Shown piece after piece: positions 5,218 to 53,792 of a stretch of DNA of 64,000 nt. Every line of letters starts with the position of its first letter. Position 1 is the first letter of the stretch. The stretch is taken from sequence record OQ108497.1. One strand, written 5' to 3'. This stretch comes from Escherichia phage EC_OE_11. Below the pieces are notes generated by a model, which saw nothing but the letters and a program-made list of their open reading frames with translations, did not search any database and was not told where the DNA came from. Both the position numbers and the translations under genes were made by a program.

Positions 5218-5226
5218 AATAACTCC

Positions 5227-5790: not shown

Positions 5791-5847
5791 ACTCCCTCCG
5801 TATTATTACTTTAGCATTTTTAGACTAAAAAGTCCAAATGGTTTTAC

Positions 5848-6298: not shown

Positions 6299-6528
6299 TC
6301 AACATTATCGTGACTACGTGAAAAACGTTCCCAAACATCTTCATCGACTCGTAAAGCTATACAAGGATAGACGTTATCATTGATCATTTCAATTGAATAA
6401 ACATCCACATTGTCTTCGTCTTCGATGAACATCATTGCAAACTGTTCTAAATGTTTCCTAATGTAATGTACATCCTCTTCTGTAAGACCAATAACAAGAT
6501 AACTTGCAACGATAACGCCATCTTTCAT
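6250..6528 (-). CDS. hypothetical protein
   Basis: 92-aa ORF. Confidence 0.45.
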   Translation of the reverse strand: MKDGVIVASYLVIGLTEEDVHYIRKHLEQFAMMFIEDEDNVDVYSIEMINDNVYPCIALRVDEDVWERFSRSHDNVECSMVMSQNNILGVLH

Positions 6529-6538
6529 CTATATCTCC

Positions 6539-7048: not shown

Positions 7049-7111
7049 ACTTGCCTCCTATTTTGTTAAACGAACTTTTATTGTAACACAGAAGAGGCTG
7101 TTTTGCAAGTG

Positions 7112-7130
7112 GAGGGGGATAATCCCCCTC
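7112..7130 (-). terminator. GC stem-loop (possible terminator or RNA-stability hairpin)
   Basis: GAGGGGG-ataat-CCCCCTC hairpin downstream of 7141..7755; weak U-tract. Confidence 0.35.
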
Positions 7131-7140
7131 TTAGACTCTG

Positions 7141-7755
7141 TTAGATATTGTAAACCTTTGTATGAGTTACTACACCATCTTCTACAAAATCAATACGTTC
7201 TTGATCCGTAACTAGTGCAGACAACACTTTAAATTTAATTTTTACACGTTCAAAAGCTGGTTGACCATCTTTAAGATAATTATGTTCAGTTGTCACTGTC
7301 TTGTTTACAAAATCAACTTTTGCTTTACCGTTTTCGCGCAAATGGAATGTTTTCCCTGCTTTATACACAATTTCAACATTACCTTCAAGAGTAATTCCTT
7401 CAAAAAGTTCACCCTCGTCTTCATTTTCTTCTTCATTTTCTTCACTTTTGAACAGACGACGAAACTCTTCCATATCAAGATAAACAACATCTTCAGAATG
7501 ACTATCAGTAAGGTATGTCCTACCATCCATTAACCCGAAATATTGCCAGATTGCAGAATAAACATCACAAGTTGATCCTGCGGTTTCCTTTAGTTTAGTT
7601 CCACGGATTACTTCATAAACTTCAAAATTGAAACCAGATTGCAAAGCATTAAACAGTACATCACTAACCTCAAAAGCATAATCTTTATTGCTGTTAATAT
7701 CTACAAGAAAATTGCCACTGCGAATAAGTTTTTTACCTTCTAAAGTAATACCCAT
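7141..7755 (-). CDS. hypothetical protein (acidic stretch)
   Basis: 204-aa ORF with AGAGGAG SD; EENEEENEDEGE run. Confidence 0.55.
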   Translation of the reverse strand: MGITLEGKKLIRSGNFLVDINSNKDYAFEVSDVLFNALQSGFNFEVYEVIRGTKLKETAGSTCDVYSAIWQYFGLMDGRTYLTDSHSEDVVYLDMEEFRRLFKSEENEEENEDEGELFEGITLEGNVEIVYKAGKTFHLRENGKAKVDFVNKTVTTEHNYLKDGQPAFERVKIKFKVLSALVTDQERIDFVEDGVVTHTKVYNI

Positions 7756-7782
7756 TGTTTTCTCCTCTTTTATTTCGAATAT

Positions 7783-7798
7783 GCGCCCCGAAGGGCGC
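7783..7798 (-). terminator. GC stem-loop (possible terminator or processing hairpin)
   Basis: GCGCCC-cgaa-GGGCGC hairpin downstream of TerD-like gene; weak U-tract. Confidence 0.35.
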
Positions 7799-7807
7799 TA
7801 TGATTTA

Positions 7808-8404
7808 TTACTCGAACCAATCGTCGCCAGCGCCAAACGCTTTAACTACATCGTAAATGTCAAGCCCAGCTTTACCTACACCATATGCTTTCAGTTTCCA
7901 TTCGCTATCTTCTCGCACCAGGGAGGCAACGTGGCAAATGGTGTTACCTGCAAGTTCTGGAGCCAAGAAGTCAAAGTCCAGCAGTTCAACATTACGTTCA
8001 TCATCGAAGATTTTAAGGAAACCTTCGGTAGCGTGACCAAGGCGTTTCTTACCCGTTTCGTCATCAATAGTAATTACGAATGCAATTTCCTGTGCTTCAG
8101 CAGAGATATTATCCAGTGTAACATCAATCTGCTCCATTTGTCCTACACCGTCACGAACATCTTCACCTGCAAAAGTAGAACGTTCAGGATCAAATTTCTG
8201 CGCGTAGCATACCAGGTGGCGAGGAGACAACAGTTCCGGCAGACCAGATGCGTTGTGTCGGCAAATCAGAGCACTAACATCCAGATCCAGTTTTTCGTTA
8301 GATTTCCAAGAGAATTCCAGACGAATGCGTTTCAGTGCTGGTGCGATCTTTTTCAGAGAAACTTTTTCGCTAGAACCTTTTTTCAGGGAAATTTTCTGAG
8401 TCAT
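7808..8404 (-). CDS. terD: TerD-domain protein (tellurite-resistance/stress family)
   Basis: Alignable to TerD consensus: ISLKKG..VSL, LDLDVSAL, EIAFVITIDD, SEWKLKAYGVG; AAGGAG SD. Confidence 0.8.
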   Translation of the reverse strand: MTQKISLKKGSSEKVSLKKIAPALKRIRLEFSWKSNEKLDLDVSALICRHNASGLPELLSPRHLVCYAQKFDPERSTFAGEDVRDGVGQMEQIDVTLDNISAEAQEIAFVITIDDETGKKRLGHATEGFLKIFDDERNVELLDFDFLAPELAGNTICHVASLVREDSEWKLKAYGVGKAGLDIYDVVKAFGAGDDWFE

Positions 8405-8476
8405 AATTTATTATCTCCTTTGTTGTTAATTTACGTTGTCTATTTTACTAATCTTTTCTACAAAGTCAAGCGTTTT

Positions 8477-9271
8477 TTACGCTTTTGCTCCAAATTTTTT
8501 AACCCACTCGCCAAACTCTTCGGATAACAGTTTATCGTAAAGTTCTTCATCAGACAAGGACAAATCTGCAATACCGATAAAATCAACATTATCGTACTCT
8601 TTTGCCAAGTCTTTCAGGAATTTAAAGTTTGCATTACCTACACCAACCATAAACCAGTAAACAGGTGTATTGCGGTGTTTGTTCAGCAAGCTACGTACTG
8701 CTGAAGTATCCATGTTCTCCCCGTCAGTTTGGAAGAAAATCATTGCAGGAGTACGATCAACTTGTGCATTAGTATCTACAACCTGTTCTACAACAGTACG
8801 TGTAACTTGTACAAGTTCTTTTTTACCAGTTAGTTTAGCAAGGAAACCTTTAGCCGGAACTTCTTCATACTCAACGACTTCGCGTGTAATATTTTTCATA
8901 GGTACACTGCCGAAGTATGTATCATAAATCTCTTGCATTACTGGAGCATAAGCTGTACCACCGTTGATGCAAACATTAGACATGCAAGAGCCGACATAAT
9001 CATCATACACATCAGCCGTTGCAGGAGGCAGTTCAAAAGAAGAACTATTGAAAGCCCACATGTCAATCTGTGCATTATCATCAAACTTCATACCAAACGG
9101 CAGCAGTTTACCTACAAAATCACTAACAGTGCCATCACGATACAGTTCACACATACTGCCCGAAATATCTAAGGCGCTACCGACACGAAGAACAACATCG
9201 TTAATCTTTTTCTTACGCAGAGATACAGTAAGAGTTTCTTGACGTTTTTTAAGACTGATTTTATTGGACAT
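8477..9271 (-). CDS. von Willebrand factor A domain protein (TerY-like)
   Basis: MIDAS-type DISGSM, GGTAY and FFQTDGE motifs; adjacent to TerD gene. Confidence 0.65.
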   Translation of the reverse strand: MSNKISLKKRQETLTVSLRKKKINDVVLRVGSALDISGSMCELYRDGTVSDFVGKLLPFGMKFDDNAQIDMWAFNSSSFELPPATADVYDDYVGSCMSNVCINGGTAYAPVMQEIYDTYFGSVPMKNITREVVEYEEVPAKGFLAKLTGKKELVQVTRTVVEQVVDTNAQVDRTPAMIFFQTDGENMDTSAVRSLLNKHRNTPVYWFMVGVGNANFKFLKDLAKEYDNVDFIGIADLSLSDEELYDKLLSEEFGEWVKKFGAKA

Positions 9272-9272
9272 A

Positions 9273-9542
9273 TTATTTCTCCTTTCTGAGTGTAATGTTA
9301 GTAACTTCTAAATCCACTTCTACTACTTCTGTATCATATAAAATACAGTTAAGTTGACCTCTTTGTGAACCATTCAGACACATTGCTTGGTTTGTATTAA
9401 CCTTAATAAACACTAAGTTTCTGAACGTATCTAAACCAGCATCTTGATAGGCAACATAATATACGAATGTATCACCTGCGTCAAGTTCTCCAAAAGATTT
9501 AGGTTCATCTGATTTGTCGTCTTTGATATTAAATTTAAGCAC
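9273..9542 (-). CDS. hypothetical protein
   Basis: 89-aa ORF. Confidence 0.45.
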   Translation of the reverse strand: MLKFNIKDDKSDEPKSFGELDAGDTFVYYVAYQDAGLDTFRNLVFIKVNTNQAMCLNGSQRGQLNCILYDTEVVEVDLEVTNITLRKEK

Positions 9543-10098
9543 TGTCTTCTCCTTTACCTGCTCTCAAGCCTAAATAGAAAGCCTCTCTGGTGATCTTTTG
9601 CAACTCGTTTAAAGAGATAGTTACAACTAAATCATCTTCAATTTCTAGCCTTGAGTCTTCTTCTGTCTCAATGCAAGTATTATGCACTTTGTGGTAAGGA
9701 TTGTCAACACGTTTAAATTTATTATTTTCAGTGCTGAAGAAGCAATCTGGATCTTCTTCTCCATCACCCCAGCCCTGGTTAGGGTCTTCTTCAGATCTTT
9801 CTGTTGGGATCTCACCTGTAAAGTGCTCTTCTAATACCAGAGCAATACCATCCCCAAGATCGGAAGAGAACATCAAATTACAAACTTCTTCCCAAGGCAT
9901 AGACCACTTGAATCTTTTACGATTGCCATGTTTATCTTCTTCGTTAGAGAAAACACCACCATAGCTATCATAATTGCCATACATCTCTTCAACAACTTTA
10001 CCACCTTTCAAAAGAAATAGGTAGCAAGGAGAGCCATCGAAAGAGGTAGAAAGAGCAGCATTACCAGACTCTTTGCACAAGAAACTAAAGCACCCCAT
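9535..10098 (-). CDS. hypothetical protein
   Basis: 187-aa ORF. Confidence 0.5.
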   Translation of the reverse strand: MGCFSFLCKESGNAALSTSFDGSPCYLFLLKGGKVVEEMYGNYDSYGGVFSNEEDKHGNRKRFKWSMPWEEVCNLMFSSDLGDGIALVLEEHFTGEIPTERSEEDPNQGWGDGEEDPDCFFSTENNKFKRVDNPYHKVHNTCIETEEDSRLEIEDDLVVTISLNELQKITREAFYLGLRAGKGEDSA

Positions 10099-10298
10099 TA
10101 TACACCAGCCTTAAGATCAATTAAAGCCAAAGTTGTTTCAGAATGTGTTTGCTCGTCTACAGGTGCAGTCATATGATAATACAAAAAGTCTTCGGCATCA
10201 TACCAATCTGACTCTTGACCTTGTTTCCAACCATCAATGAAAGCATCTTCCATGATGGTTTGTAACTCTTCACGAGTTAAGTGAATATCTTTACTCAT
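10098..10298 (-). CDS. hypothetical protein
   Basis: 66-aa ORF, coupled. Confidence 0.45.
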   Translation of the reverse strand: MSKDIHLTREELQTIMEDAFIDGWKQGQESDWYDAEDFLYYHMTAPVDEQTHSETTLALIDLKAGV

Positions 10299-10531
10299 TA
10301 CACATTCTCCTCTTTTACCAATTCCATCGTTGAACTATCAAAACCATCTTTAGAAGAATAGGTATAGACAGGACGTAGTTCTCGCAGGACAGTGAATACA
10401 TTAGGATCATCTAACCAAGCATCCTGGAGGAGAACATAACGATCTTCATTGTCGTACTGGACAGCAATCATAGAACCAGACAGTTTGTAAATTTTAATAT
10501 TCATAATATATTTCTCCTTAAAGTAGACCAC
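10298..10531 (-). CDS. hypothetical protein
   Basis: 77-aa ORF, coupled. Confidence 0.45.
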   Translation of the reverse strand: MVYFKEKYIMNIKIYKLSGSMIAVQYDNEDRYVLLQDAWLDDPNVFTVLRELRPVYTYSSKDGFDSSTMELVKEENV

Positions 10532-11621
10532 GTTTAACAGTTTGAATCATACCATCTTCAAGAGATTGTACTTCTTGGATGTAATCAATACGAGCAGCAC
10601 GGGCTTCAGTGTTGATTCGGTTAGTTTCTTCCAACATTTTAACTAAGTTTTCTTGATCGCGACGTAGTGTTTCAATATCCAATACTTGACGATTAGCAAG
10701 TTGTGTAGCTTCAATTTGGTTTTGTGCAGCCAGATCACTACCCATTGCAATAGCAGCATTAAATTCATTCAGTACATTGTTCTGTGTATCGGCTGCTTTC
10801 TTCTGGCGTAGACTTTCAATATACATAGAAAAGTTTGCAGAGTAAGCAGGGATAACATTATTCACAATGTTACGTGCTGATCGCATCAAACTTGCAGATA
10901 CTTTCTGCATACTTTGTACACGTGGCCCCATCTGAACACACAGTAAACGCAAGGCTTTCAGGTCTGCAATACGAATTTCAAGCAGATCCATAGTATCACG
11001 AGTACGTTGACGCTCTTCTACTTCATTTTCAGGTAGAGTATTAAGGCGAACTTCTTCTTTTTCATAAGTAGCTGTTAGAAGCTCTATATCCCTGTTTAAG
11101 CTAAGAGCATATTTTGCAATAGCCTCTTCTAAACGTTGCAGATATCGTAAAGAATCTTCTTCTTTTTTCAAGTCTGTTTGGAGTGTCTTTACCAAACCTT
11201 CAATACGATTATTGATGGTGTCAAACTCTCCAAACAAATCTTCTTTCATACCTAACACTTTCTTAACTAGCTTACCTAAACCTTTAGATTGTTTAATAGA
11301 ATTAGGATCAAGTTGCTTTGCTTGCTTAATAAGTGCAGTTAAACGTTCACTCATTTCATCTCCCTGGGATGAACGCTGGTGTTTAAGCACTTCAGCATTA
11401 AGGTTACGAAGAGTAAGTCCTGCATCAGCACCAACTTGTTCAATCTCTTCACGAGACATTGGAGGCAGCATTTGTACAGGTCGTGCAACAGCAGGTGCAT
11501 ATACAGGGCTTGCATCCATAGCACTTGGAGCAAACAAAGACTTACTCTTTTCTGTTGTTGCCGTGAATACACTCATTTCAGACGGTTTGCTTTTTACGGC
11601 ACTGATAAAAGGACTGGACAT
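10518..11621 (-). CDS. TelA-like toxic-anion-resistance family protein (tentative)
   Basis: 367 aa, disordered N-terminus then long coiled-coil; size, architecture and Ter context match TelA/KlaB; not motif-proven. Confidence 0.45.
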   Translation of the reverse strand: MSSPFISAVKSKPSEMSVFTATTEKSKSLFAPSAMDASPVYAPAVARPVQMLPPMSREEIEQVGADAGLTLRNLNAEVLKHQRSSQGDEMSERLTALIKQAKQLDPNSIKQSKGLGKLVKKVLGMKEDLFGEFDTINNRIEGLVKTLQTDLKKEEDSLRYLQRLEEAIAKYALSLNRDIELLTATYEKEEVRLNTLPENEVEERQRTRDTMDLLEIRIADLKALRLLCVQMGPRVQSMQKVSASLMRSARNIVNNVIPAYSANFSMYIESLRQKKAADTQNNVLNEFNAAIAMGSDLAAQNQIEATQLANRQVLDIETLRRDQENLVKMLEETNRINTEARAARIDYIQEVQSLEDGMIQTVKRGLL

Positions 11622-11689
11622 TCAATTTCCTCCATATTCTTTAGTAGATGGTGATACCTCTGTACCACCATCATAACACAAATTAAGTA

Positions 11690-12541
11690 TTAAACAAACA
11701 TATCTAAATAATTTGTAGTAATAAATGCTCCATCTGCTTCCAGATTAACATAACCAGTAGCATTAGTGGTTAAGAAATCCAGATCGAAGGACTCTTTAAC
11801 ACCCCGTACCTCAACACGAGAGATATCGAATACAGGTAGTGTAACAGCCTCTTCGTGCAATACCGTACCTTTGTAGGTTGCCTTAATGATAAACTTGATA
11901 TTACCCGTTCCAGCATCATACAAAACACTTTCAAACCCTTTGAGAGTATATTTATCACCAGAAGTGAAGTGCAAAGTTGCTTTGTTTACAGTACGTTTTT
12001 TACGAGGAGTTCCTTTCACACGTTTATGATCACTACGTTTTTTGTATTTAGGAATGAATACAAACGATACACTCTCAAGAAAGGTATCAACATCAAGGAT
12101 TTTAATATCCTCTGTTGCAGCAAATTTTGAAGTCGTTGCATCAAAATGCTTTCCCCTGCGATCATACATAAAGATATCAAACCGATCTTCTAAATCAAAC
12201 AAATTATGTATCTTAATTTCAGAATGCTTGCACATTGCAGCAACCTTAAACTCTTCAAAACGTGGGTGTTCTACCAGTTCTTCAAGTTTTACACCAAAGA
12301 CAGTATATGGTTTCGAAGTTTTTTCTGGTGTTGGCATTACAGAAGCATAATCACCGATTGCGCTCTTAAAGCAAAATTGTTCTTGACCTGTATTTTTACC
12401 AACGAATTTACAGTATTCGTCATCGTGCATGCTTTCCTTGGTAGTACCAACAAACTCAAAACCATCTTTATTCTTCTCAAGAATTTCTTGATTAAAGATC
12501 CAACCTTCCAGGCGATACACTTTACCAACTTCTAGTTTCAT
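11690..12541 (-). CDS. hypothetical protein
   Basis: 283-aa ORF. Confidence 0.55.
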   Translation of the reverse strand: MKLEVGKVYRLEGWIFNQEILEKNKDGFEFVGTTKESMHDDEYCKFVGKNTGQEQFCFKSAIGDYASVMPTPEKTSKPYTVFGVKLEELVEHPRFEEFKVAAMCKHSEIKIHNLFDLEDRFDIFMYDRRGKHFDATTSKFAATEDIKILDVDTFLESVSFVFIPKYKKRSDHKRVKGTPRKKRTVNKATLHFTSGDKYTLKGFESVLYDAGTGNIKFIIKATYKGTVLHEEAVTLPVFDISRVEVRGVKESFDLDFLTTNATGYVNLEADGAFITTNYLDMFV

Positions 12542-12576
12542 CTGTTTCTCCTTCTTGTTTAATCTGTATTAAATTA

Positions 12577-13182
12577 TTAACGACGACGTGAGCTACTAAA
12601 ACTACGTTTCGACGAAGAATAACTTTTCGAAGACTTACTATAAGAGCTAATAGGACTTGAGTAAGACTTACGAGCAGAGTAATCACTATTCACTTTTGTT
12701 GTTGATGGGCGTGAATACGTTTGTACACTTTGCTGCTTAATTGTGTTTTGTTTAGTGGTTGTATATGTATTTACAGGTTTATCATAAAAACTACGCTTTT
12801 GTGTTGTATATGATTTACTGTTAGTTGTAGGAGCAGCATTGTTATTAATAATGGTTGTATTGCTACCACCATCTCTATAACCACCACCGCCACTATTACC
12901 ACTCAACATATGACCAAGAAGCATACCTGTAGCAAATTCACCTACACCAGAAGAACTACTACCGCCTCCTTGCACAACAACTGTTGAAGGTTGTGCAGGT
13001 GCTGCTTGAACAACTTGAGGTGCAGGTTGATTTACATATTGTTCATCTACCATCTGATTTGGTGTTTGTTGGTAACGTTGATTTTGTACATTTTCAGAAT
13101 CATCACAACCTACCAGCAATACACTACCTAATACAACTGCAACAATAAAAGATTTAATGTTTTTCATTTGTAACCCTCTCAT
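12577..13182 (-). CDS. lipoprotein, low-complexity S/T/Y/K-rich
   Basis: Signal peptide with LLVGC lipobox; C-terminal repetitive S/Y/K region. Confidence 0.55.
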   Translation of the reverse strand: MRGLQMKNIKSFIVAVVLGSVLLVGCDDSENVQNQRYQQTPNQMVDEQYVNQPAPQVVQAAPAQPSTVVVQGGGSSSSGVGEFATGMLLGHMLSGNSGGGGYRDGGSNTTIINNNAAPTTNSKSYTTQKRSFYDKPVNTYTTTKQNTIKQQSVQTYSRPSTTKVNSDYSARKSYSSPISSYSKSSKSYSSSKRSFSSSRRR

Positions 13183-35371: not shown

Positions 35372-35585
35372 TATTTTGAAAATTTTTACTTTTATAAAAA
35401 GGGGTGTGGGTTTCATGTACGGAAATCCACCCTCTGAATAATATATCCAGAGTAAATATTATTCTGTACTCTGTTAATAAAGTATTTAATTTGTTTGTTG
35501 GACTATGGTATCTGATCTTTAAAAGGCATACTATCTCTTAACTACTATTTATAACAGAACAGTAAAATCATTTTTATAAAAAGGA

Positions 35586-35790
35586 CAAAATTATTTAAAG
35601 TTTTTACAGATTTTTGGATACAAATTTTGAAAATGAAAAGTTCAAGTTTGGTCAAAATTATTTAAAGTTTTTGTACGTATTTCTATCCAGATTTTGAAAA
35701 TGAAAACTTCAATTTTTTAAAAATTCCCCAGTTTATTTAAAGTTTTTTTGCCTTTTTCCGTAGAAAAATCAAAAATGAAAAGTTCAATTT
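35586..35790. repeat. 3 tandem copies of about 67-bp AT-rich unit
   Basis: Each unit has AAAATTATTTAAAGTTTTT and ATTTTGAAAATGAAAAGTTCAA. Confidence 0.7.
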
Positions 35791-35811
35791 CGTGTTTTTA
35801 TAGGTGTGCGT

Positions 35812-35925
35812 ATGATAATCATTCTCATTTGTAAATGAGAATCATTATCATTTAATTATGTAAGTGATAATCATTCTCAGTAAGAGAATGAGAATCATTA
35901 GCAAATGAGAATTTTTCTCATTTAG
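35812..35925. promoter_or_regulatory. cluster of Fur-box-like motifs (GATAATCATTCTCATT / AATGAGAATCATTATC)
   Basis: At least 5 units in both orientations resembling Fur consensus GATAATGATAATCATTATC. Confidence 0.5.
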
Positions 35926-35929
35926 AGAA

Positions 35930-36480
35930 TAACGCGCAGGGGTGGTGTTTGTCTCGCGCTCCCGTGTCCCTCGCCATACAATAAGAATAGCATAACCAAC
36001 AACAAAAGCAAGCGATTATTTTTATCTTTACATTTCTTTACAAATTTATTTTAGACGAGCTACCGGCGATCAACCTTCCAACCAGTGCCCCTGGTATGTT
36101 AGCCCCGCCTTTACGCCGTGGGGGTGGCGCTTCCTCTTCTGTATGTAAAACAGTATAAGCCCGATCCCTGGGCTTGTCAAGATTATTTTTTGTTTTCTTG
36201 CCAGGAAAGGACACCTAACCAAAAATACATATCGCCCCGCGCCCCTGGCGGGATCTTGCTTTCCCCGCCGCCACTGCAAGCCCATAAATAACCATCAGCG
36301 AACGGATCAAAATGTTCTATCTCTTCCACCTTATGATCGCCCAGGTTGAGAACGGTTTCAACCTTTAAGCCCGTTGCGCTTGCTACCTGGTGCACCGTGC
36401 CGCCTTGCCAGCCCAATGAGTGCATGAGATGTAAAGGAGTATTTGTCATGGTATCGCCCTTTCTTTGATGTGCGCCCTGG
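35930..36480. other. GC-rich compositional island inside AT-rich non-coding hub
   Basis: Visibly GC-rich versus flanks; only weak ORFs. Confidence 0.5.
36183..36449 (-). CDS. hypothetical protein (88 aa) within GC-rich island; possibly acquired
   Basis: ATG 36449 with AAAGGGCG SD-like; atypical codon composition. Confidence 0.3.
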   Translation of the reverse strand: MTNTPLHLMHSLGWQGGTVHQVASATGLKVETVLNLGDHKVEEIEHFDPFADGYLWACSGGGESKIPPGARGDMYFWLGVLSWQENKK

Positions 36481-36714
36481 TTGGCGCGGTAGAAAGATAA
36501 TAGCCGTTTCCTTTATAGATAGCAAGCAAAAAGAAATGAAAAAAAGATTAAAAAATGGTTGACGTTCCTCACCTGGTAGCGTAGTATTCATCTTGTCGAG
36601 GGGGGCAAGGCACAACGACAATAAACAATAGGCGGGTGCAATGCAGGACGGGCAAAGGTGAGGATCTCCACAATCCACCGTCACAATAACATTACTTATA
36701 AAAGGTTGATAACG

Positions 36715-36810
36715 ATGATCAAGAAAGAAAACAGCTTGACGGTTGGAACGATTAACGCTATCATTCTAGCCGTTCCATTTTGGATTGTAGTAGCGGTTGT
36801 TATTTTCTAA
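36715..36810 (+). CDS. small membrane peptide (31 aa), speculative
   Basis: ATG 36715; single hydrophobic helix; weak SD. Confidence 0.25.
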   Translation: MIKKENSLTVGTINAIILAVPFWIVVAVVIF

Positions 36811-36819
36811 AAAATATTC

Positions 36820-36878
36820 TTGACAACGTTTTTTAATCTGATAAGATGTATCACATAGGGCGGCAATAGTGCCGCTCA
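36820..36878 (+). promoter_or_regulatory. promoter + 5'-leader stem-loop cassette (PeSL-like, type B)
   Basis: TTGACA-16nt-TAAGAT then GCGGC-aatagt-GCCGC hairpin, SD, ATG 36900. Confidence 0.55.
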
Positions 36879-36899
36879 TAACAGAAGAGAGAAATAATC

Positions 36900-37172
36900 A
36901 TGGCATCATATAGCGCATCAATGATCGTAACGGGCATGACTGGTAAACCTATGCGCGGTGGCGGATCTTTCGCTAACATCAATATTGATGGGCGTTTATC
37001 CCTGGATGCAGCGATCACCGTGGCACGGGAAACATTTAAAAAAGAATGTAATTTCAATAAACAAGATTATCTCGGCTTCGTTATTGAAAAAACCGCGCGC
37101 TTTGTTGATTATAAAAGCCCGAAAATGATCGACACTACACTAAAAGCGCAAGATGTAGCATTTTTGCTTTAA
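36900..37172 (+). CDS. hypothetical protein
   Basis: 90 aa. Confidence 0.55.
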   Translation: MASYSASMIVTGMTGKPMRGGGSFANINIDGRLSLDAAITVARETFKKECNFNKQDYLGFVIEKTARFVDYKSPKMIDTTLKAQDVAFLL

Positions 37173-46308: not shown

Positions 46309-46332
46309 ATAACATTTCATACCAGGGCGCAC

Positions 46333-46360
46333 AAAGCGCCCTTTCTTTTTACCTAAATAA
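46333..46360 (+). terminator. intrinsic terminator
   Basis: GGGCGC-acaaa-GCGCCC + TTTCTTTT. Confidence 0.75.
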
Positions 46361-46554
46361 AGATGATAGCTTTTACCTATCAAAAACGTTCACCGAAAAA
46401 AGTGAATAGATCGCGGTATCGAGCTAATCAAGGAGCAGATGAACAACCATACCATGAAGATCATAAGGCGCTTACAACGTGTTTTAGACCGCTTATTTTT
46501 AATTTCTCAATGTAACTATCGGGCAAAAACAGCCTTTTTCTTGTCTTTCCTCTT

Positions 46555-46572
46555 AAATGATAATCATTCTTA
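46555..46572. promoter_or_regulatory. Fur-box-like motif AAATGATAATCATTCTTA
   Basis: Matches GATAATGATAATCATTATC-type consensus. Confidence 0.45.
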
Positions 46573-46610
46573 TTTATAGCTGATTATTTATGCAATAAAC
46601 TGCATAATGC

Positions 46611-46630
46611 AATAATGATAATCATTCTTA
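46611..46630. promoter_or_regulatory. Fur-box-like motif AATAATGATAATCATTCTTA
   Basis: Second copy about 55 bp downstream. Confidence 0.45.
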
Positions 46631-46924
46631 ACTTATGACCATCTAACCTATAAAATAATAAGTTATCTAACTAAATTAAAGCTAACTATTTCACCTTTAT
46701 TTATAACTTACTGTTACTATCTCATTGATAACCTTATATTAAACAACAATAACTAATATAAATCATTACTAAGCTAAATATAATCTATCTAACCTTTAAA
46801 ACTATAACTATAATCTATCGAATTGTTGCACAAAGTAACTATTAAATTGTTAGTAACATTACTAAATAATTCACATCCTATCTATTTATGATCTAATCTT
46901 TACCTTCCTATCTATTACCTAAGT

Positions 46925-46956
46925 AATCATTTCATACAGCAATCATTTCATACAAC
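46925..46956. repeat. tandem direct repeat AATCATTTCATACA(G/A)C x2
   Basis: Two adjacent 16-bp units in ORF-free AT-rich region. Confidence 0.6.
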
Positions 46957-47019
46957 AACTATAACAAGAAATATAATTAGCAAGCGTATCATTAGCAGCC
47001 TATGCCGGACACATAGGCG

Positions 47020-47165
47020 GCTAATAATAACGCAACTACACACCCCACATAATAACCATCACCGATAGTTATTATCTGTGCTTATGTAGCTTGCAACAAT
47101 TGCAAGCGCAACAATATACATGGTATATTGTATCCCTTACATTGTTGCGGTGCGTTATTATTAGC
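47020..47165. repeat. large dyad-symmetry element: 14-bp inverted repeats flanking about 120 bp with internal hairpins
   Basis: GCTAATAATAACGC at 47020-47033 vs exact reverse complement at 47152-47165; internal CGCAACAAT...ATTGTTGCG hairpin. Confidence 0.6.
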
Positions 47166-47511
47166 TAATGTTTGGAACATTGGCTATAATATAAGCTACA
47201 TATAATAAGCTATTCAATAATAAACATCGTGAATAATGACATTGAAATGAATAATGACACTGATGATCATAATGCGCCACCTTCCAGGGGGCGCTATGTG
47301 AACACAAAGAAATCTTTCTTGTCAAGAAAAATATCACCATTATTGCGCAAAATTATTTATATCTGAATAGATGATTTTTCATACTATTGCCCCTATACAC
47401 TACCTCATTTGTTGCAATGTATCCCCCTATTTGTTGAGCCTATTCTCTTAAAAGCGCAATAAATCAGAATTATCTTGATTTTTAGTGGATTTTATAGTAT
47501 AGAAAATATGC

Positions 47512-47529
47512 AAATGATAATCATTATCA
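47512..47529. promoter_or_regulatory. Fur-box-like motif AAATGATAATCATTATCA
   Basis: Near-consensus Fur-box-like palindrome. Confidence 0.45.
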
Positions 47530-47694
47530 GCTATCTTCCACGGGTGGCACTATTTCACGCCAGATCATTTCATTTGGCAAGGTGTATATAGATGTTTAGA
47601 AATGCCAAGCCATTGATTTACTTAGAATTTATCTGTTTTGTTGTGAGTAGTGCCTTTCTTGCTCAGAAAATAATCAAAAGTCTTATAAGTCATT

Positions 47695-47730
47695 GAATGA
47701 TAATGCAAATGATAATAATTCTCATTGATA
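47695..47730. promoter_or_regulatory. tandem Fur-box-like motifs
   Basis: GAATGATAATGCAAATGATAATAATTCTCATTGA. Confidence 0.45.
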
Positions 47731-47846
47731 TTTGAGGGGGACGGTCGGCAGAAATCGGGGGGCGCTGAAAATCGCGTTAAGCACCTCTCGCAAGCGAGCA
47801 GTATTTTGCGGCAAGTTATTGATATTATTGGCTTTACGCTTATGGA

Positions 47847-47954
47847 AAGGGGGTGTGTCGAAATAAATCGGGTATACCGGAAAATTTTTGTGGCATAGAT
47901 ATTTATTTGTCTATATTATGTACAAAGGGGTGTGTTAAAAATATTAGGTATATA
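47847..47954 (+). repeat. two copies of about 30-bp direct repeat (AAAGGGGTGTGT..AAATA..GGTATA), possible promoter elements
   Basis: 47847-47876 and 47924-47954, about 75 bp apart, upstream of first gene of 48-60 kb cluster. Confidence 0.5.
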
Positions 47955-48085
47955 TAGAATAATTGATAGGGAAATCCTATACTAATTCCTCTATTAATGA
48001 TGCTTCTAGGTTGCTGTTCTTGTAATAGATGAAAAGACGCTATATGATGTGTGGCATGAAACGTAAATTTATAAAGGAGTCTGAT

Positions 48086-48445
48086 ATGTGTGTTCCTCTT
48101 AGCAGTCCACTGCTGTTAGAATTTTACAAAGCATGGATGGAAGATCATTCCTCAATGCATCGTGAGAATGTTGGTTTGTGTAATTGCCTTATGGATTACC
48201 TGGCAACCACTATGTCAAAGAAAAAACCTACGGAAGAAGATATAGAATATTTCAAGATGGTTCGTAGCAAAACGCTGGAAGAGATGAAACTGCAATTCAC
48301 GTGTGCTGGGCTATGCTCCTTCCTACCCTTTAATTATGATCTTCTGTGTTATGAAGATGAAGGTAAGACACATTCTTGCCATACCAACCCAAAGAGATTG
48401 CAGTGGGTGAAAGATCGTATTGCCGATTCATGCAAGGGTGTGTAG
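48086..48445 (+). CDS. paralog family member A (conserved-Cys family)
   Basis: ATG 48086 with AAAGGAG SD; shared LLEFYKAW, GLC.CL, FTCAGL, LPFN.D, RLQWVKDRI. Confidence 0.55.
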   Translation: MCVPLSSPLLLEFYKAWMEDHSSMHRENVGLCNCLMDYLATTMSKKKPTEEDIEYFKMVRSKTLEEMKLQFTCAGLCSFLPFNYDLLCYEDEGKTHSCHTNPKRLQWVKDRIADSCKGV

Positions 48446-48446
48446 A

Positions 48447-48602
48447 ATGTTGGAATTGATTGGGATAGTTTGGTTAATGATAAAAGCAGGTTTCGTCGGT
48501 TTCGGACTTCTTATAATTTTGTGTATGTTCCTTAGTGCAATACAGGCATTCTTTTATCTGCTAGGTAGAATACTTAAGTTGGGAGGTGATAATGAAAAGT
48601 AA
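48447..48602 (+). CDS. small membrane protein (51 aa)
   Basis: ATG 48447 right after upstream stop. Confidence 0.4.
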   Translation: MLELIGIVWLMIKAGFVGFGLLIILCMFLSAIQAFFYLLGRILKLGGDNEK

Positions 48603-48960
48603 TATTCCGTTGAGTAGTGCAGCTTTAATACGATTCTATAAAGCATGGATTGCCAACCATCCTGCAATGAATCGCACAACGAGTGGCTTATGTGGTTGTC
48701 TGGTAGATTATGTAGATGATTTTGTTGGGGAGATAACTAGAGAAGAAGATAAAAGATGGCGTGATCGTTTGTTGGATAGTTTGAAATACGAAATGAGGAA
48801 ACAATTTACATGTGCAGGACTGGACTACAATCTTCCGTTCAATGCAGATTGCATGGATTACCTTTCAGAGTGTATAGACTTGGCGTGTCATACCAACACG
48901 TTACGTCTTCAATGGGTGAAAGACAGAATCGAAGATGCAAATAATGCTTGCATTGAATAG
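48592..48960 (+). CDS. paralog family member B
   Basis: ATG 48592 with GGGAGGTG SD; same motif set. Confidence 0.55.
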   Translation: MKSNIPLSSAALIRFYKAWIANHPAMNRTTSGLCGCLVDYVDDFVGEITREEDKRWRDRLLDSLKYEMRKQFTCAGLDYNLPFNADCMDYLSECIDLACHTNTLRLQWVKDRIEDANNACIE

Positions 48961-49030
48961 AAATGTCTGTACACTGTGTTCCATAAGATATACAATATCG
49001 CGCATAACAAACTACTAATGAGAGGTGTAA

Positions 49031-49489
49031 ATGAAAACTGTATCTTTGTATCTTGCTAACACGGAGCGTGTACATAATCTTGTAAAAGAATGCGGTGTGA
49101 GTGTTCAATTTAACATAGGAAAGCCTTCCGTGGTGACAGGCAGTGAGATGTGTGTTATTGATTTCCTCAATGAGTATTTTCGTGGAAAACCTATTGCTCG
49201 TCACTTCATTCAAGAAATGCGAGATGTACTACAGGCTTATGAATTCTACCCAGAAATTTGTGAACGCTATGAAACGATTCTTAGTTCTGTAGAAGATCCA
49301 GATACTAGTGAAACAGGTGCTTCCCACTTGCTGTGGATGTTGAATGAAATTCAGGATGGGTGTAATGGTATGTCTGAAACCAAACGCCATCGCTGGCTAG
49401 GCTATATTCAGGGTGTTATGGTTATGAAAAACCTTATTACAGTGAATGATGAACGTAACGCTACCCGCCCAGTCTTTAATGGAGCATAA
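49031..49489 (+). CDS. hypothetical protein
   Basis: 152 aa. Confidence 0.55.
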   Translation: MKTVSLYLANTERVHNLVKECGVSVQFNIGKPSVVTGSEMCVIDFLNEYFRGKPIARHFIQEMRDVLQAYEFYPEICERYETILSSVEDPDTSETGASHLLWMLNEIQDGCNGMSETKRHRWLGYIQGVMVMKNLITVNDERNATRPVFNGA

Positions 49490-49490
49490 C

Positions 49491-49706
49491 ATGAAAAGCA
49501 TTAGGGTGTGTATCGAAAATAATTGTGGCTATCTGGGGTTGACACACGTTGCTTTCCCTCTTATATTGGATGCCGATATAGCTTACAGTGGAGTTGCTTA
49601 TGTGTCATTCAAGACAATGAGCCAAGTACCTGGCTGGAATTGGGAAGTGGTTGATGTTGTTGAAGGAGAAGACTATGTTTTCCTTCCACACGAATATACT
49701 GTTTAA
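49491..49706 (+). CDS. hypothetical protein (71 aa)
   Basis: ATG 49491 with GGAG SD. Confidence 0.5.
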   Translation: MKSIRVCIENNCGYLGLTHVAFPLILDADIAYSGVAYVSFKTMSQVPGWNWEVVDVVEGEDYVFLPHEYTV

Positions 49707-49721
49707 AGAGAGGAAAAGAAG

Positions 49722-49904
49722 ATGGATAAACAAACTACTGTGTACTTAGTAACAAAGAATACCCTAGACTGGAACCAATGCAGCACTGTCCCTTACAAGA
49801 TCTGTGCAACATTAGAACTAGCACAACGTGCAGAAGCAGAAGTGGATGCCATGCAAATGCAACACAGCTATGGTGAAATCATTCCTTTTACTATTGAACA
49901 ATAA
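49722..49904 (+). CDS. hypothetical protein
   Basis: 60 aa. Confidence 0.5.
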   Translation: MDKQTTVYLVTKNTLDWNQCSTVPYKICATLELAQRAEAEVDAMQMQHSYGEIIPFTIEQ

Positions 49905-49915
49905 GGAGTTGTGTA

Positions 49916-50368
49916 ATGTTTGAAATTGGTAAAGTGTATCGTTTTAAGAACGAATCTTATATCCGTAAGTTTGCTAATGTGTCTGAGTGCAATAGCAGGA
50001 TTGCTTCTTTCTTAGGTGATTCCTGTTTTCGTGTATTAGATGTGGATGCCTGGTATGGTGTCACTTCTTTGCAATCCTTAGCAGGAGAGCAAGAAATTAT
50101 CACTCAAAATGAAGGAGACTTTGTTCTGTGTTACACATTGCTTGCAGAAAGTGAGTTTGAATACTTTGTAGAAGTAGTAGAGGAAACACCAAAAAGTAAA
50201 CATGAAGAGAAATACCTGCTTGTAGTGGATGGAGTTCCAATCGTGGAAACCATCTACCGTGAGGAAGTTGAAAAAGAGGCAAAACGTTACAAGCTGGATC
50301 GTACACAGAGTGTAGTTGAAGTCTATTCTCTTATTGGTGTTGCAGATGTTCATGTGAACATTGTATAA
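49916..50368 (+). CDS. hypothetical protein
   Basis: 150 aa, AAGGAG SD. Confidence 0.55.
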   Translation: MFEIGKVYRFKNESYIRKFANVSECNSRIASFLGDSCFRVLDVDAWYGVTSLQSLAGEQEIITQNEGDFVLCYTLLAESEFEYFVEVVEETPKSKHEEKYLLVVDGVPIVETIYREEVEKEAKRYKLDRTQSVVEVYSLIGVADVHVNIV

Positions 50369-50369
50369 T

Positions 50370-50582
50370 ATGTGTAATGATAGATACATTCTTCGTGTAT
50401 CTGATAAGTCTCCTATGTTTGACTGGCGGGGCTGGTGGCTACTAGCTCCGATGCTAGGTCTGACTGACGTGGAAAAGGAGGCTTATGTGTATACAAAAGA
50501 AGAGATAGAAGATAGCCTTTATTTGACAGATAACATTAAGAATGGTATCTTTGAGTGTAAATTGAAAGGAGAGGAAGAATGA
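50370..50582 (+). CDS. hypothetical protein (start uncertain)
   Basis: First ATG at 50370; weak SD. Confidence 0.35.
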   Translation: MCNDRYILRVSDKSPMFDWRGWWLLAPMLGLTDVEKEAYVYTKEEIEDSLYLTDNIKNGIFECKLKGEEE

Positions 50583-50878
50583 CTGTTACAGAAAAACTGC
50601 GTTGTATTGCAAAGCAAAGCGGGGAAGGTTTGTGGTTTCCTATTGATGAAGTTATTCAGGACTGTTATGATCAGGCTAAGACTGGTAAATACTCCAAAGC
50701 ATTTAAACCATCTGTTTTCGGTCTGGATGACTATCCGACAAATGAACAAGCAAGGAAACGCCAAGTTGATTTGATTGATCTTGCTATGGAAGCACTACGG
50801 GAGCGTGGACTTAGTAAGGTGTATGCTTTAAACACCAAAGAGGGTTTTGTAGATTCCGTGATCGTAGACTGGCATTAA
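50579..50878 (+). CDS. hypothetical protein
   Basis: 99 aa, AAAGGAGAGG SD. Confidence 0.55.
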   Translation: MTVTEKLRCIAKQSGEGLWFPIDEVIQDCYDQAKTGKYSKAFKPSVFGLDDYPTNEQARKRQVDLIDLAMEALRERGLSKVYALNTKEGFVDSVIVDWH

Positions 50879-50887
50879 GGAGAGATC

Positions 50888-51127
50888 ATGCAAGACAAGA
50901 ACCTAGCTGTAGGTGATACTGTTATTTACACACCGATGAAGCCCAATGGTTTTCCTATGCTCGGTACTGTTGTAGATATTACAGACCGTTTTGTCACCAT
51001 CTCTACAGGAGATATGCAGGTTGTACGTGATCGCAAGAATATCACTCGCTTTACGGACACTAAAACAGCATATGAGTCGAGAGATAAATTGGCTGAAGAG
51101 ATTGCCAAGTGGTATCCTGTACACTAA
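50888..51127 (+). CDS. hypothetical protein
   Basis: 79 aa, AAGGAG SD. Confidence 0.55.
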   Translation: MQDKNLAVGDTVIYTPMKPNGFPMLGTVVDITDRFVTISTGDMQVVRDRKNITRFTDTKTAYESRDKLAEEIAKWYPVH

Positions 51128-51141
51128 AAGGAGTGTGTAAC

Positions 51142-51483
51142 ATGAAAAGCAGCCCCTATTTGCTACAATTTTATGAGTGGTGGTTAGAACAAGAAGATAC
51201 AAACTTTAGCAAAAAGCACTATGGTCTTTGCACGTGTCTTGTAGACTTCTTATACAATATTGCTTGGATAAAAGATGTTGAGAATGTATCAAAACTCCAG
51301 TCCTCTGTACGAGAGGAAATGAAGGAACAGTTTAAGAAAGCGGGTTTGAACCATTTACACCCATTTAATACAGATTTCTCACATTACTTTACGGAAACAG
51401 AGTTAGGCATTGCACACCTTAACAAAAAACGTGTACAATGGGTGATTGATCGTATTCGTGATATGGAGGAATATAATGGTTAA
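51142..51483 (+). CDS. paralog family member C
   Basis: ATG 51142 with AAAGGAG SD; LLQFYEWW, GLC.CL, FKKAGL, HPFN.D, RVQWVIDRI. Confidence 0.55.
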   Translation: MKSSPYLLQFYEWWLEQEDTNFSKKHYGLCTCLVDFLYNIAWIKDVENVSKLQSSVREEMKEQFKKAGLNHLHPFNTDFSHYFTETELGIAHLNKKRVQWVIDRIRDMEEYNG

Positions 51484-51694
51484 GTTTAAAACTTTCTGTG
51501 CAATCTCTGTTTGTCTTGTTCTTGCATACGTGTTATTCTCTGGTATCATTCGTTTAGGTGATCATATGGCAAGAGAAGCTCGTGAAAGTGAAGCTAAAAA
51601 AGAACAGTGTATTGTGTTCAAGCATCAAAGAGATGCTGAAAAGTTTCTCGCACTTGATTGCAATCGTTATGTATCTTATCAAATGTATAAGTAA
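51476..51694 (+). CDS. small N-terminally membrane-anchored protein (72 aa)
   Basis: ATG 51476 with GGAGG SD; paralog of 56188..56412. Confidence 0.5.
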   Translation: MVKFKTFCAISVCLVLAYVLFSGIIRLGDHMAREARESEAKKEQCIVFKHQRDAEKFLALDCNRYVSYQMYK

Positions 51695-51703
51695 GGAGGA
51701 TTT

Positions 51704-51928
51704 ATGGTAAAACGTCTGGAATGGGATGCGTGTACTGCTCACGCTTGTCACTGCGATATTGTTGAAGATCCTAATGGGGAGATGGTGTATTACGAGGATT
51801 ACGAAGCATTGCATAATGCTGTGATCGCTTTACTGGATGATATTAGCTCACGCTATCCAGGACAACAGTTTACGTGTCCACATATTCAACTGTTAGCCAA
51901 ACTTACGGAGTATCCAAGTGTTCCATAA
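51704..51928 (+). CDS. hypothetical protein (Cys/His-rich N-terminus)
   Basis: 74 aa, AAGGAGG SD. Confidence 0.55.
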   Translation: MVKRLEWDACTAHACHCDIVEDPNGEMVYYEDYEALHNAVIALLDDISSRYPGQQFTCPHIQLLAKLTEYPSVP

Positions 51929-51929
51929 T

Positions 51930-52097
51930 ATGGGTGTCCCTGAACAACTCCTCTTTATTGTAGGACTAGTAGGCTTATTGGCGGCTGGAGCTAAAGCCGC
52001 TTCTCACACGCGTCACATAATGTTAAGATTTCTATTCCTGCTCCCTTCTATCCTCGTACTACTAGTCATACTGATCGATAACATTTTGCACAACTAA
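51930..52097 (+). CDS. small membrane protein (55 aa), speculative
   Basis: ATG 51930; hydrophobic; no clear SD. Confidence 0.25.
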   Translation: MGVPEQLLFIVGLVGLLAAGAKAASHTRHIMLRFLFLLPSILVLLVILIDNILHN

Positions 52098-52106
52098 GGA
52101 GAAGTC

Positions 52107-52691
52107 ATGAGTAAAATTATACCAAGCAGTTATGAATTATTGCAGTTTTATGTCTATTATATAGACTGGGTTACTAGATCGAATGTTAAAGACAATGCGA
52201 TGTTTAGTAAAAACATCTGTTTAACAGAAAGTATCTTCCGTTACTGGCACACAGGCAGAAAGTGTACACACAGTGAAGCTATGCGCATTGTAGGTGAATA
52301 CCTGGAGCAATTGCAAAAAGCAGAACTTCCTGTCCTTCACCCATTCAATGAATCTAAAGAAGAATTAGAACAAGAGTGTAGGGAAGGTAAGTGTCATTTG
52401 AATGAAAAACGTATTGAATGGGTAAGGCAACGTTTAGCCGATGCAGGAAAGCCTCCTAGTGACTCTGACTATACGTGGTACGATGTAGAGGGTTTAGTTC
52501 AAGGTTTTGAGGCTTGTGCTATAAATAATACCAACTTTGCTAAAGTTTTATGCGAGGTTTATGATTTGGCAGATAAAATCCGAAATCAAGGATGGAAACA
52601 AGAGCATAAAGAATCATATGAACGCCTTGACAAGATTTTCAAACAGATCTATTCTAACCACAAAGAGATGTTCCAAATGGAGGATGTGTAA
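52107..52691 (+). CDS. paralog family member D (longer C-terminal extension)
   Basis: LLQFYVYY, FSKNICL, QKAELPVLHPFN, RIEWVRQRL; 194 aa. Confidence 0.5.
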   Translation: MSKIIPSSYELLQFYVYYIDWVTRSNVKDNAMFSKNICLTESIFRYWHTGRKCTHSEAMRIVGEYLEQLQKAELPVLHPFNESKEELEQECREGKCHLNEKRIEWVRQRLADAGKPPSDSDYTWYDVEGLVQGFEACAINNTNFAKVLCEVYDLADKIRNQGWKQEHKESYERLDKIFKQIYSNHKEMFQMEDV

Positions 52692-53377
52692 TGAAAGAGA
52701 TTATGTTTGAAGGGCATCGTTACGAAGTTCCAGATAATGCAAATTTCATGGCTCGTGATATCACTGGAGATGTGTTCTGGTTTGAAGATGAACCTGTGTT
52801 TTCTTCGAACAAACACTGGTTTTCACAACAATCTTCTTCGGAAAATATGACTTTTGGCTACGTAGAGCCTAAAGTGCGCTGCAAAGCAGCTTCTTCTTTG
52901 GTAAAAATTTCCCAAGATGATCAAGAAAATACTCAAGATGTTGTTAGTGCACTACTGAAGTACATTGCCGAACTTGAGAATAAAATTAAAGAAGCAGAAA
53001 CTAAAGTGAAAGCACGATCAGCAATCATTGAAGCTATGTCTGAACGTATTTTAGAACTAGAAGATTTGTGTGGAGAGGCTTATCAAGTGGTTGGTGCACT
53101 GGCTTGTGAAGCAGAAATGTTTGAAACTTCAGAACAAGTTTCACATATGTTAGATAATTTGAGTGAATGTAAAATGATTCATGATGATGTATTGCCATTT
53201 TGTTGCAATGTTAACAAAACAGAGCAAACAGAAGATTCAGAAACAGTTTATGTTCCGCTGATGTGTATTCCAGATCATCTAAAAGGTGTATTCTCTTGTA
53301 AATGGTCATTGTTGAGCGTTACTAATTGTGGTGAAAATTATTCTGCTAACATTGAATTGCTAAAACACGTTAAATAA
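52691..53377 (+). CDS. hypothetical protein (central coiled coil, Cys-rich C-terminus)
   Basis: 228 aa, GGAGG SD. Confidence 0.55.
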   Translation: MKEIMFEGHRYEVPDNANFMARDITGDVFWFEDEPVFSSNKHWFSQQSSSENMTFGYVEPKVRCKAASSLVKISQDDQENTQDVVSALLKYIAELENKIKEAETKVKARSAIIEAMSERILELEDLCGEAYQVVGALACEAEMFETSEQVSHMLDNLSECKMIHDDVLPFCCNVNKTEQTEDSETVYVPLMCIPDHLKGVFSCKWSLLSVTNCGENYSANIELLKHVK

Positions 53378-53387: not shown

Positions 53388-53792
53388 ATGTGGTCTGTTA
53401 AAATCAAATATAATGCGCAGTATTATGGTGGGAAGCCTTACGAAGTTGTTATTTGTGACTGTATCTCTAAAGAAGTTGCACAGCTTTGTGGCGCTGGTGT
53501 TAGTGAAGCTATGAACAAAATGCATAACTCCACTGTACGTTACCTGGATCGGGATATTTCAGAAGATGTAAATGACTATGATTACGAGGTTATTTACAGT
53601 GAAGGTAAGAAACTCTCTATTGAAGATGCACTTAAAGCACTACCTGCTCTCTGCAATCCGACACCAGAAGCAGTTAAAGAGATTTTACCAGAATCCAACC
53701 CCGATGAATATGCCTCTATGGTTGCTTCAGATATGTGGAATCTCTGTCGAGAAACTATGATTAAAAATCTTGTGGAAATGGCACATGAGTAA
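53388..53792 (+). CDS. hypothetical protein
   Basis: 134 aa, AAGGAG SD. Confidence 0.55.
   Translation: MWSVKIKYNAQYYGGKPYEVVICDCISKEVAQLCGAGVSEAMNKMHNSTVRYLDRDISEDVNDYDYEVIYSEGKKLSIEDALKALPALCNPTPEAVKEILPESNPDEYASMVASDMWNLCRETMIKNLVEMAHE

Follow-up and report, generated by a model that had tools for sequence, protein, structure and literature searches.

A phage-restricted family of small, predicted five-helix proteins, present as four diverged paralogs near the chromosome end of a phi92-like Escherichia phage

Introduction

Several small anti-defence proteins of phages are known, some examples being Ocr, Tad1/Tad2, Acb2 and Gad1. The present work deals with four paralogous genes located between positions 48,086 and 52,691 of the window, which is the whole 64,000-nucleotide (nt) stretch of Escherichia phage EC_OE_11 that was analysed (sequence record OQ108497.1). 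The proteins that they encode are already grouped as PHROG 2510, 27059 and 6418, all of unassigned function, and the genes of the family are annotated as hypothetical. In the genus of the window phage an anti-TIR factor, Atd1, has been reported (PMC11724313), and in phage lambda the Ea22 protein, encoded in a region that corresponds to one of the locations of the family in temperate phages, was reported to favour lysogeny (PMC7093339, PMC10834534).

The original prediction described a four-member paralogous family of small Cys-containing proteins, sharing motifs in the same order and otherwise divergent, to which no known domain could be assigned; it called the family tandem and diversified, noting that such phage families are often specificity or counter-defence factors, and proposed multiple alignment, the ratio of nonsynonymous to synonymous substitutions (dN/dS) and structure prediction as checks. 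The paralogy, the family size, the orphan fold, the genomic placement, the copy-number flux, the recombination between paralogs and the purifying selection are established here.

Four diverged copies of one domain

One phage-specific domain of about 110 amino acids (aa) is encoded in all four genes, whose copies of it diverged long ago. Each gene is an open reading frame (ORF), and the names gp006 and gp010 used below are gene names of phage phi92.

48086..48445, + strand: first paralog, ORF of 119 aa, Shine-Dalgarno sequence AAGGAG, match to phrog_2510 at E=1.9e-21
48592..48960, + strand: second paralog, ORF of 122 aa, Shine-Dalgarno sequence GGGAGG, match to phrog_2510 at E=6.1e-24, the copy modelled with AlphaFold2
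51142..51483, + strand: third paralog, ORF of 113 aa, match to phrog_2510 at E=1.9e-25, counterpart of phi92 gp006
52107..52691, + strand: fourth paralog, ORF of 194 aa, matches to phrog_27059 at E=8e-140 (8.2e-140) and to phrog_2510 at E=5.5e-17, ortholog of phi92 gp010
52107-52451, + strand: family domain of the fourth paralog (about residues 1-115)
52452-52688, + strand: acidic C-terminal extension of the fourth paralog, about 79 aa, tail pI (isoelectric point) 4.7

A strong Shine-Dalgarno sequence (AAGGAG or GGGAGG) lies 5-8 nt 5' of the ATG in all four genes, and the records of phages Eryne and PATM carry annotated ORFs at matching positions. For the first paralog, the Eryne record shows the same ORF and the PATM record one that differs at its 3' end. 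In the case of the third paralog, gp006 and its Eryne and PATM counterparts are annotated as 122 aa, from a start 27 nt upstream of the 113-aa start used here, and the sequence upstream of that start is different in the window.

All four proteins match phrog_2510 (E between 5.5e-17 and 1.9e-25), the fourth being in addition a full-length member of phrog_27059. Even the most distant pair, the first and the fourth, is linked by BLASTP at E=5e-9 across the C-terminal half, and a hidden Markov model (HMM) built from the four paralogs recovers just these four among the 646 six-frame ORFs of the window, with no fifth copy. In a MAFFT alignment the four are collinear, with 23 invariant columns and identities of 24-47%; the second, third and fourth are 47%, 43% and 29% identical to the first. 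The motifs L..FY..W, GLCxCL, EM..QF..AGL, PFN and CHxN..R.QWV..RI follow each other in this aligned form and order. The fourth paralog deviates, having KNICL in place of GLCxCL and QKAEL in place of F..AGL, and carries an additional C-terminal tail of about 80 aa. The original observation of a paralogous family, collinear and significantly related, is confirmed.

The arrangement of the genes is looser than the word tandem implies. Only the first two paralogs are adjacent; 2.2 kb separate them from the third, and 0.6 kb the third from the fourth, so that the set is dispersed over 4.6 kb. At 20-50% identity the paralogs are old and not recent tandem duplicates. A second part of the description has to be withdrawn: the proteins contain 8, 7, 2 and 6 Cys residues from first to fourth, but the wider family has a single invariant Cys, all others being lineage-specific, so that Cys content is not a family trait.

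A large family confined to phages and prophages

An exhaustive HMMER search returned 1,344 clusters (at 50% identity) at E<=1e-3, and 602 at E<=1e-10; word-index searches found close relatives only, all unnamed. Most members stand alone, at 100-125 aa; others have two domains in tandem, and others again are mosaic proteins of 280-400 aa, which tblastn links to genes annotated as EaA or EaD in P22-like Salmonella phages. One mosaic protein carries a C-terminal DUF551, whose function is likewise unassigned, and the recognisable fusion partners are DUF551 and EaA-type segments only. The hosts of the phages with tblastn matches include Escherichia, Salmonella, Klebsiella, Erwinia and Pectobacterium, and also Rhizobium, Burkholderia, Delftia and Achromobacter. 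The BASEL coliphages Bas60 and Bas62 carry orthologs of the fourth paralog, and phages JohannJBalmer and EmilieFrey also have members of the family. An association with plasmid leading regions was considered and rejected, a homolog having been found in only one of 72,556 plasmids.

The annotations of family members in their source records, from more than 100 genomes, are all 'hypothetical'. None of 103 diverse members matches any Pfam model, the four paralogs match nothing above threshold in Pfam, NCBIfam or PADLOC (sub-threshold hits being at chance level), and the domain portion of the mosaic proteins has no family match in these three collections; the known defence-associated models of PADLOC give no match to the family. 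Literature searches on the phage group, on early genes and on paralog families found nothing relevant, and a search for related loci in genome contigs yielded no confirmed locus.

Predicted fold and conserved residues

The AlphaFold2 model of the second paralog, built on a 31-sequence alignment, is confident, with a predicted local distance difference test score (pLDDT) of 93.7 and a predicted template modelling score (pTM) of 0.86. It has five helices, at residues 10-20, 33-45, 51-74, 87-95 and 103-120. Foldseek finds no significant neighbour of the model in the PDB (best E=2), and a library of viral predicted structures returns matches to uncharacterised phage proteins only. The predicted fold is therefore an orphan among solved structures. 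When profiles were run against all PDB sequences, they gave nothing or chance-level matches (best E=0.7). The statement that no known domain is assignable therefore holds across Pfam, NCBIfam, PADLOC and PDB sequence and fold searches, and the structure prediction suggested as a check gave a confident five-helix model with no solved neighbour.

Conservation was measured as per-column entropy over the 103 diverse members, in second-paralog numbering.

Y16, C34, P82, F83 and R105: conserved in 103/103
N102: conserved in 100/103
Q71: conserved in 99/103
E67: conserved in 96/103
S9: conserved in 92/103
Y90: conserved in 91/103
E93: conserved in 89/103
N84: conserved in 80/103
H100: conserved in 71/103
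N36: conserved in 71/103
L12, F15, G32, L33, F72, L77, W108 and V109: conserved in at least 90%

Hypervariability, together with frequent insertions and deletions, marks residues 38-66, helix 4 and the C-terminal tails. Asn replaces the second Cys of GLCxC in 71 of the 103 members and C99 is kept in 60; in the fourth paralog it is the invariant Cys that gives way to Asn, a Cys following two residues on. Helical periodicity assigns C34, E67, Q71 and R105 to helix faces that also hold core hydrophobic residues, so that they could make up either a network that is buried or a pocket in the interior. With a median pI of 5.3 the family is mildly acidic, and is therefore not a typical DNA binder. An obligate dimer was considered in view of the tandem two-domain proteins. 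One of these, P0034, was modelled by AlphaFold2 with a pLDDT of 90.6 and a pTM of only 0.65, and for this reason the packing of its two domains is not regarded as fixed.

Some candidate folds and motifs were tried and rejected. A zinc or Cys-rich motif, with three to four Cys/His ligands at fixed spacing, does not fit a family in which C34 is the sole invariant Cys and the second Cys of GLCxCL is usually Asn. HEPN-type helical RNases, defined by an Rx4-6H motif at a helix start within a four-helix fold, do not fit either, the resemblance being at noise level. Winged-helix regulators (MarR, PadR, LysR N-terminal) were set aside as well, the fold similarity amounting to noise, and a resemblance to MavE is also at noise level.

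Placement near genome ends and in early operons

The window is about 96% identical in this region to many Stephanstirmvirinae phages of Escherichia (Justusliebigvirus and Phapecoctavirus), among them VivaForever, Eryne, PATM and the BASEL phages, and represents a phi92-like (Justusliebigvirus/Phapecoctavirus) myophage. Nucleotides 1-556 of phi92 and 1-700 of Salmonella phage UAB_1 align from window position 47437 at 97% identity, and since nt 1 of both maps to this internal position, the window is a circularly permuted assembly.

47437..47779, no strand assigned: direct terminal repeat of 343 bp marking the physical left chromosome end, annotated as such at nt 1-343 of phi92 and UAB_1

No gene lies between the physical left end, at 47437, and the first paralog, which starts 650 nt from that end. 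The chromosome ends are inside a 1.75-kb AT-rich noncoding region (46343-48085) that follows a terminator at 46324-46342 and is rich in short direct and inverted repeats. The genes surrounding the paralogs are all small + strand ORFs with no Pfam assignment, and sigma-70-like hexamers occur upstream at background frequency.

Similar positions are seen in unrelated phages. The T7-like Rhizobium phage Palo (Autographiviridae) has its homolog as gene 007, about 4 kb into the record and downstream of the terminal repeat; in the N4-like Erwinia phage Fifi450, it lies near one genome end, three genes from 'RNAP1 subunit A'. In a P22-like prophage, a mosaic member comes after N, cIII, Arf, Erf, Abc2 and an Ead_Ea22-like gene and is followed by a DUF551 gene and an integrase, and in Citrobacter prophages the homolog is found between a cI-like repressor and the integrase. 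Across these four phage architectures the family occupies small accessory ORF blocks near a genome end or the repressor-to-integrase operon, which are the expected early regions, and early expression of the family is suggested by this position.

Directly 3' of the fourth paralog, the window genes at 52691-53377 and 53388-53792 are orthologs of phi92 gp011 and gp012, with no Pfam match; the phi92 record labels both 'potential Eaa-like', a second link to the ea region of P22-like and lambdoid prophages.

Copy number, recombination and selection

Near-identical phages differ in their number of copies, with two in phi92 (the third and fourth paralogs), three in UAB_1 and four in the window. Phi92 has no counterpart of window 47990-48910, a deletion that ends at junction 48910, as in UAB_1. 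At least three copies lie within 14 kb in phAPEC8, and tblastn finds one to seven matching places per phage record. The largest expansion seen is in the metagenomic phage contig L012 (Logan SRR21291453), which carries nine genes with ten domains at 2368-12636, within 12.6 kb, including six consecutive family genes at 4166-6633. Pairwise identities among the nine are 20-47%.

Some copies are chimeras of others. UAB_1 gp001 follows the first paralog to about nt 330 and continues with the tail of the second, the crossover falling in the common coding stretch for CHTN..RLQWVKDRI, so that window position 48414 is joined to 48910 and 496 bp are deleted. The same chimera, a first-paralog body with a second-paralog tail, is represented by cluster P0004, and the PATM version of the first paralog ends in the tail of the membrane ORF next to it. 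The family thus behaves as an expandable accessory set: phages have one to at least nine of its genes, close relatives gain and lose them, and paralogs form chimeras. Unequal recombination between the first two paralogs is seen at window 48414 and 48910 and at 651-1016 of L003.

Selection within each lineage was estimated as Nei-Gojobori dN/dS between orthologs.

Third paralog: dN/dS 0.02-0.22, the most constrained copy
Fourth paralog: dN/dS 0.03-0.29
First and second paralogs: dN/dS about 0.25, from few substitutions

The third paralog is 95.5-99% identical in about 55 phage records. These ratios show purifying selection on orthologs; the genes are functional, with conservation of every paralog lineage. 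Diversification separates the old paralogs and does not occur within orthologs. Overall, the dN/dS of 0.02-0.29 between orthologs reflects purifying and not diversifying change, with no positive selection.

Possible roles of the family

The interpretation preferred here, tentatively and with less than even confidence, is that the four genes encode early accessory proteins that act on the host, in takeover or counter-defence, by means of a conserved scaffold or pocket combined with variable specificity segments. The grounds for it are circumstantial: the end-proximal or early-operon placement, the dispensability of copies, the expansion, the restriction to phages, the acidity, and the combination of a conserved core with variable surfaces. 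The four genes are part of the accessory block of small ORFs that occupies the very left end of the phi92-like genome, and they encode soluble, mildly acidic domains with a predicted five-helix fold. Such proteins would be non-essential, made early in infection and directed at host components. Y16, G32-L33-C34, E67, Q71, P82-F83-N84, N102, R105 and W108 would form the conserved scaffold or pocket, and the target specificity of each paralog would reside in the hypervariable residues ~38-66 (from late helix 2 into early helix 3), in helix 4 and in the C-terminal tails. Early expression, the host-directed role and binding as the mode of action are inferred. The suggestion of specificity or counter-defence factors in the original prediction is an analogy; counter-defence is possible, being neither supported nor contradicted by the results.

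Several points weigh against this proposal. Neither experiment nor homology ties the family to a host target or a defence system; PADLOC gave no match, and no solved anti-defence protein is similar in sequence or fold. The orthologs show no positive selection, and it is from gene position that early expression is deduced. Moreover, the many invariant polar residues, with C34 in 103/103 members, look more like an enzyme or ligand site than an adaptable binding scaffold; in the model, the conserved residues may line either an open pocket or a buried network.

This last point leads to an alternative that is less probable and on balance doubtful, namely that the proteins are small enzymes or small-molecule binders, with the invariant Cys34, at the N-terminus of helix 2, as their functional centre. 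C34 together with E67, Q71, N84, H100, N102 and R105 would then make up the active or ligand site, and possible activities would be modification of a host protein or nucleotide, or sequestration or cleavage of a signalling molecule, with paralogs differing in substrate. The conservation of C34, Y16 and R105 in all 103 members, and of E67 in 96, Q71 in 99, N102 in 100, N84 in 80 and H100 in 71, agrees with such a site, as do the retention of the Cys in 27 of the 28 domains of tandem proteins and the purifying selection on orthologs. However, as judged from the model and the conservation, C34, E67, Q71 and R105 lie on core hydrophobic faces and may be a buried structural network; the fourth paralog, itself well conserved, has Asn at the Cys position, and about 30% of members have Tyr, Arg or Ser instead of H100.

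Less likely still is that the proteins are internal developmental regulators of the phage, governing the lysis-lysogeny decision, transcription or the timing of replication, by analogy with lambda Ea22. The domain does occur in the exo-xis/ea region of temperate phages, as a module of EaA-type mosaics and near Ead_Ea22 and DUF551 genes, and the reported pro-lysogenic effect of Ea22 (PMC7093339, PMC10834534) would fit such a role. But the family is also present in strictly lytic T7-like, N4-like and rV5-like phages, which have unrelated transcription strategies, and its copies are dispensable between near-identical phages. The proteins are acidic, their winged-helix similarities are noise, and the family profile matches no solved structure, including the C-terminal domain of lambda Ea22 if that was deposited as PMC10834534 implies.

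The weakest alternative concerns three small membrane ORFs near the paralogs.

48447..48602, + strand: membrane ORF of 51 aa between the first two paralogs, Kyte-Doolittle maximum 2.49, annotated in Eryne
51476..51694, + strand: membrane ORF of 72 aa overlapping the end of the third paralog, Kyte-Doolittle maximum 2.55, counterpart of phi92 gp007
51930..52097, + strand: membrane ORF of 55 aa, 9 nt upstream of the fourth paralog, Kyte-Doolittle maximum 2.78, phi92 gp009

It is highly improbable that each paralog and its adjacent membrane protein form a two-gene module, for example a tether or regulator of a membrane-acting early protein: all three small transmembrane ORFs of the 19-gene stretch adjoin a paralog (chance about 0.04 by our own count) and in the metagenomic protein P0036 a membrane segment is fused in frame to a second-paralog homolog, but that fusion is known from one 1.4-kb contig, the neighbours are not membrane proteins in SeSz-2, Palo, Fifi450 and two metagenomic contigs, and UAB_1 and PATM keep the family gene with no membrane ORF between the first two paralogs. 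P0036 has 176 aa and is encoded at 796-1326 of contig L020, a single 1.4-kb metagenomic contig; in the window, the reading frames of 48447-48602 and 48592-48960 differ, and the two ORFs share 11 nt. ORF 48447..48602 was deleted in UAB_1 through the recombination between the first two paralogs, and phi92 gp009, the counterpart of 51930..52097, has a predicted signal peptide. In general, a functional link between paralogs and membrane ORFs is not supported, their co-occurrence not extending beyond the window subfamily.

Significance of the family

A more far-reaching reading would be that the paralogs define a new fold with a Cys-centred active or ligand site and a widespread class of early phage effectors, each neutralising a different host factor or immune pathway, and this appears unlikely. 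If it were true, the class would cover about 1,300 clusters across phages of Enterobacteria, Rhizobium, Burkholderia and others, and would be a phage multigene family comparable to the host-range families of poxviruses. As it stands, this is an ordinary unannotated early accessory family, with no evidence for a new mechanism, and a solid candidate for follow-up. Being large and phage-restricted, with a confidently predicted orphan fold, no curated domain model and an invariant Cys, Tyr and Arg, it offers a tractable target among unannotated genes, and its members have multiplied repeatedly, giving multi-copy arrays in accessory blocks near genome ends or in early operons of phages of unrelated types. 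Natural two-, three- and four-copy variants and the BASEL phages are on hand for comparison. Should a host target or a defence system be found, thousands of phage and prophage genes, including the EaA-type modules, would be annotated.

Other features of the window

Just upstream of the third paralog, a 79-aa ORF at 50888-51127 has a sub-threshold match to a Phage ProQ C-terminal-like domain (E=7e-4). The sequence of Eryne differs there, and the start of its gp006 ortholog falls at the position corresponding to this ORF region. By eye, the ORF resembles the DUF7205-type ORF that adjoins a family member in L004, and in L012 a DUF7205 ORF lies between two family members.

Dense arrays of sites close to the Fur-box consensus of E. 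coli, GATAATGATAATCATTATC, occur at window 35810-35930 and also at 46555-46641, 47508-47540 and 47703-47735. Five matches to this consensus with at most three mismatches were counted, where 0.03 were expected. The densest array lies in a 1.5-kb noncoding stretch (35372-36900), and one site, at 47510-47528 with two mismatches, is inside the direct terminal repeat. These arrays may serve as phage promoters that respond to iron or Fur, act as a Fur decoy, or form an operator specific to the phage whose likeness to a Fur box is fortuitous.

No tRNA gene and no Rfam family at threshold was found anywhere in the 64-kb window. The sign of the GC skew flips near 30 kb and again near 60 kb, which corresponds to switches in gene orientation.

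Comparison with known systems

The entries PHROG 2510, 27059 and 6418 contain the same proteins as the paralogs and give no function, fold or domain definition. The domain definition with its invariant residues, the orphan five-helix fold, the status as a module of EaA-type proteins, the genome-end position and the expansion and recombination behaviour are new, the expansion, early-end placement and orphan fold having been worked out here.

Among phages, the nearest described relatives are the EaA and Ead-Ea22-type mosaics of the early-left 'ea' region of P22-like and lambdoid prophages, which carry the same domain of about 110 aa as an internal module. The EaA-type mosaics are proteins of 280-400 aa encoded between abc2/erf and int, whereas the window genes encode stand-alone domains in a lytic myophage, and EaA itself has no known function. 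Lambda Ea22 is not known to contain the family domain, and the family profile matches no solved structure.

Atd1 is a MazG-like pyrophosphatase and hence probably a member of a different family from the paralogs. Ocr, Tad1/Tad2, Acb2 and Gad1 are small, early, accessory and variably present, as is this family, but solved anti-defence proteins of this type have no sequence or fold similarity to the paralogs.

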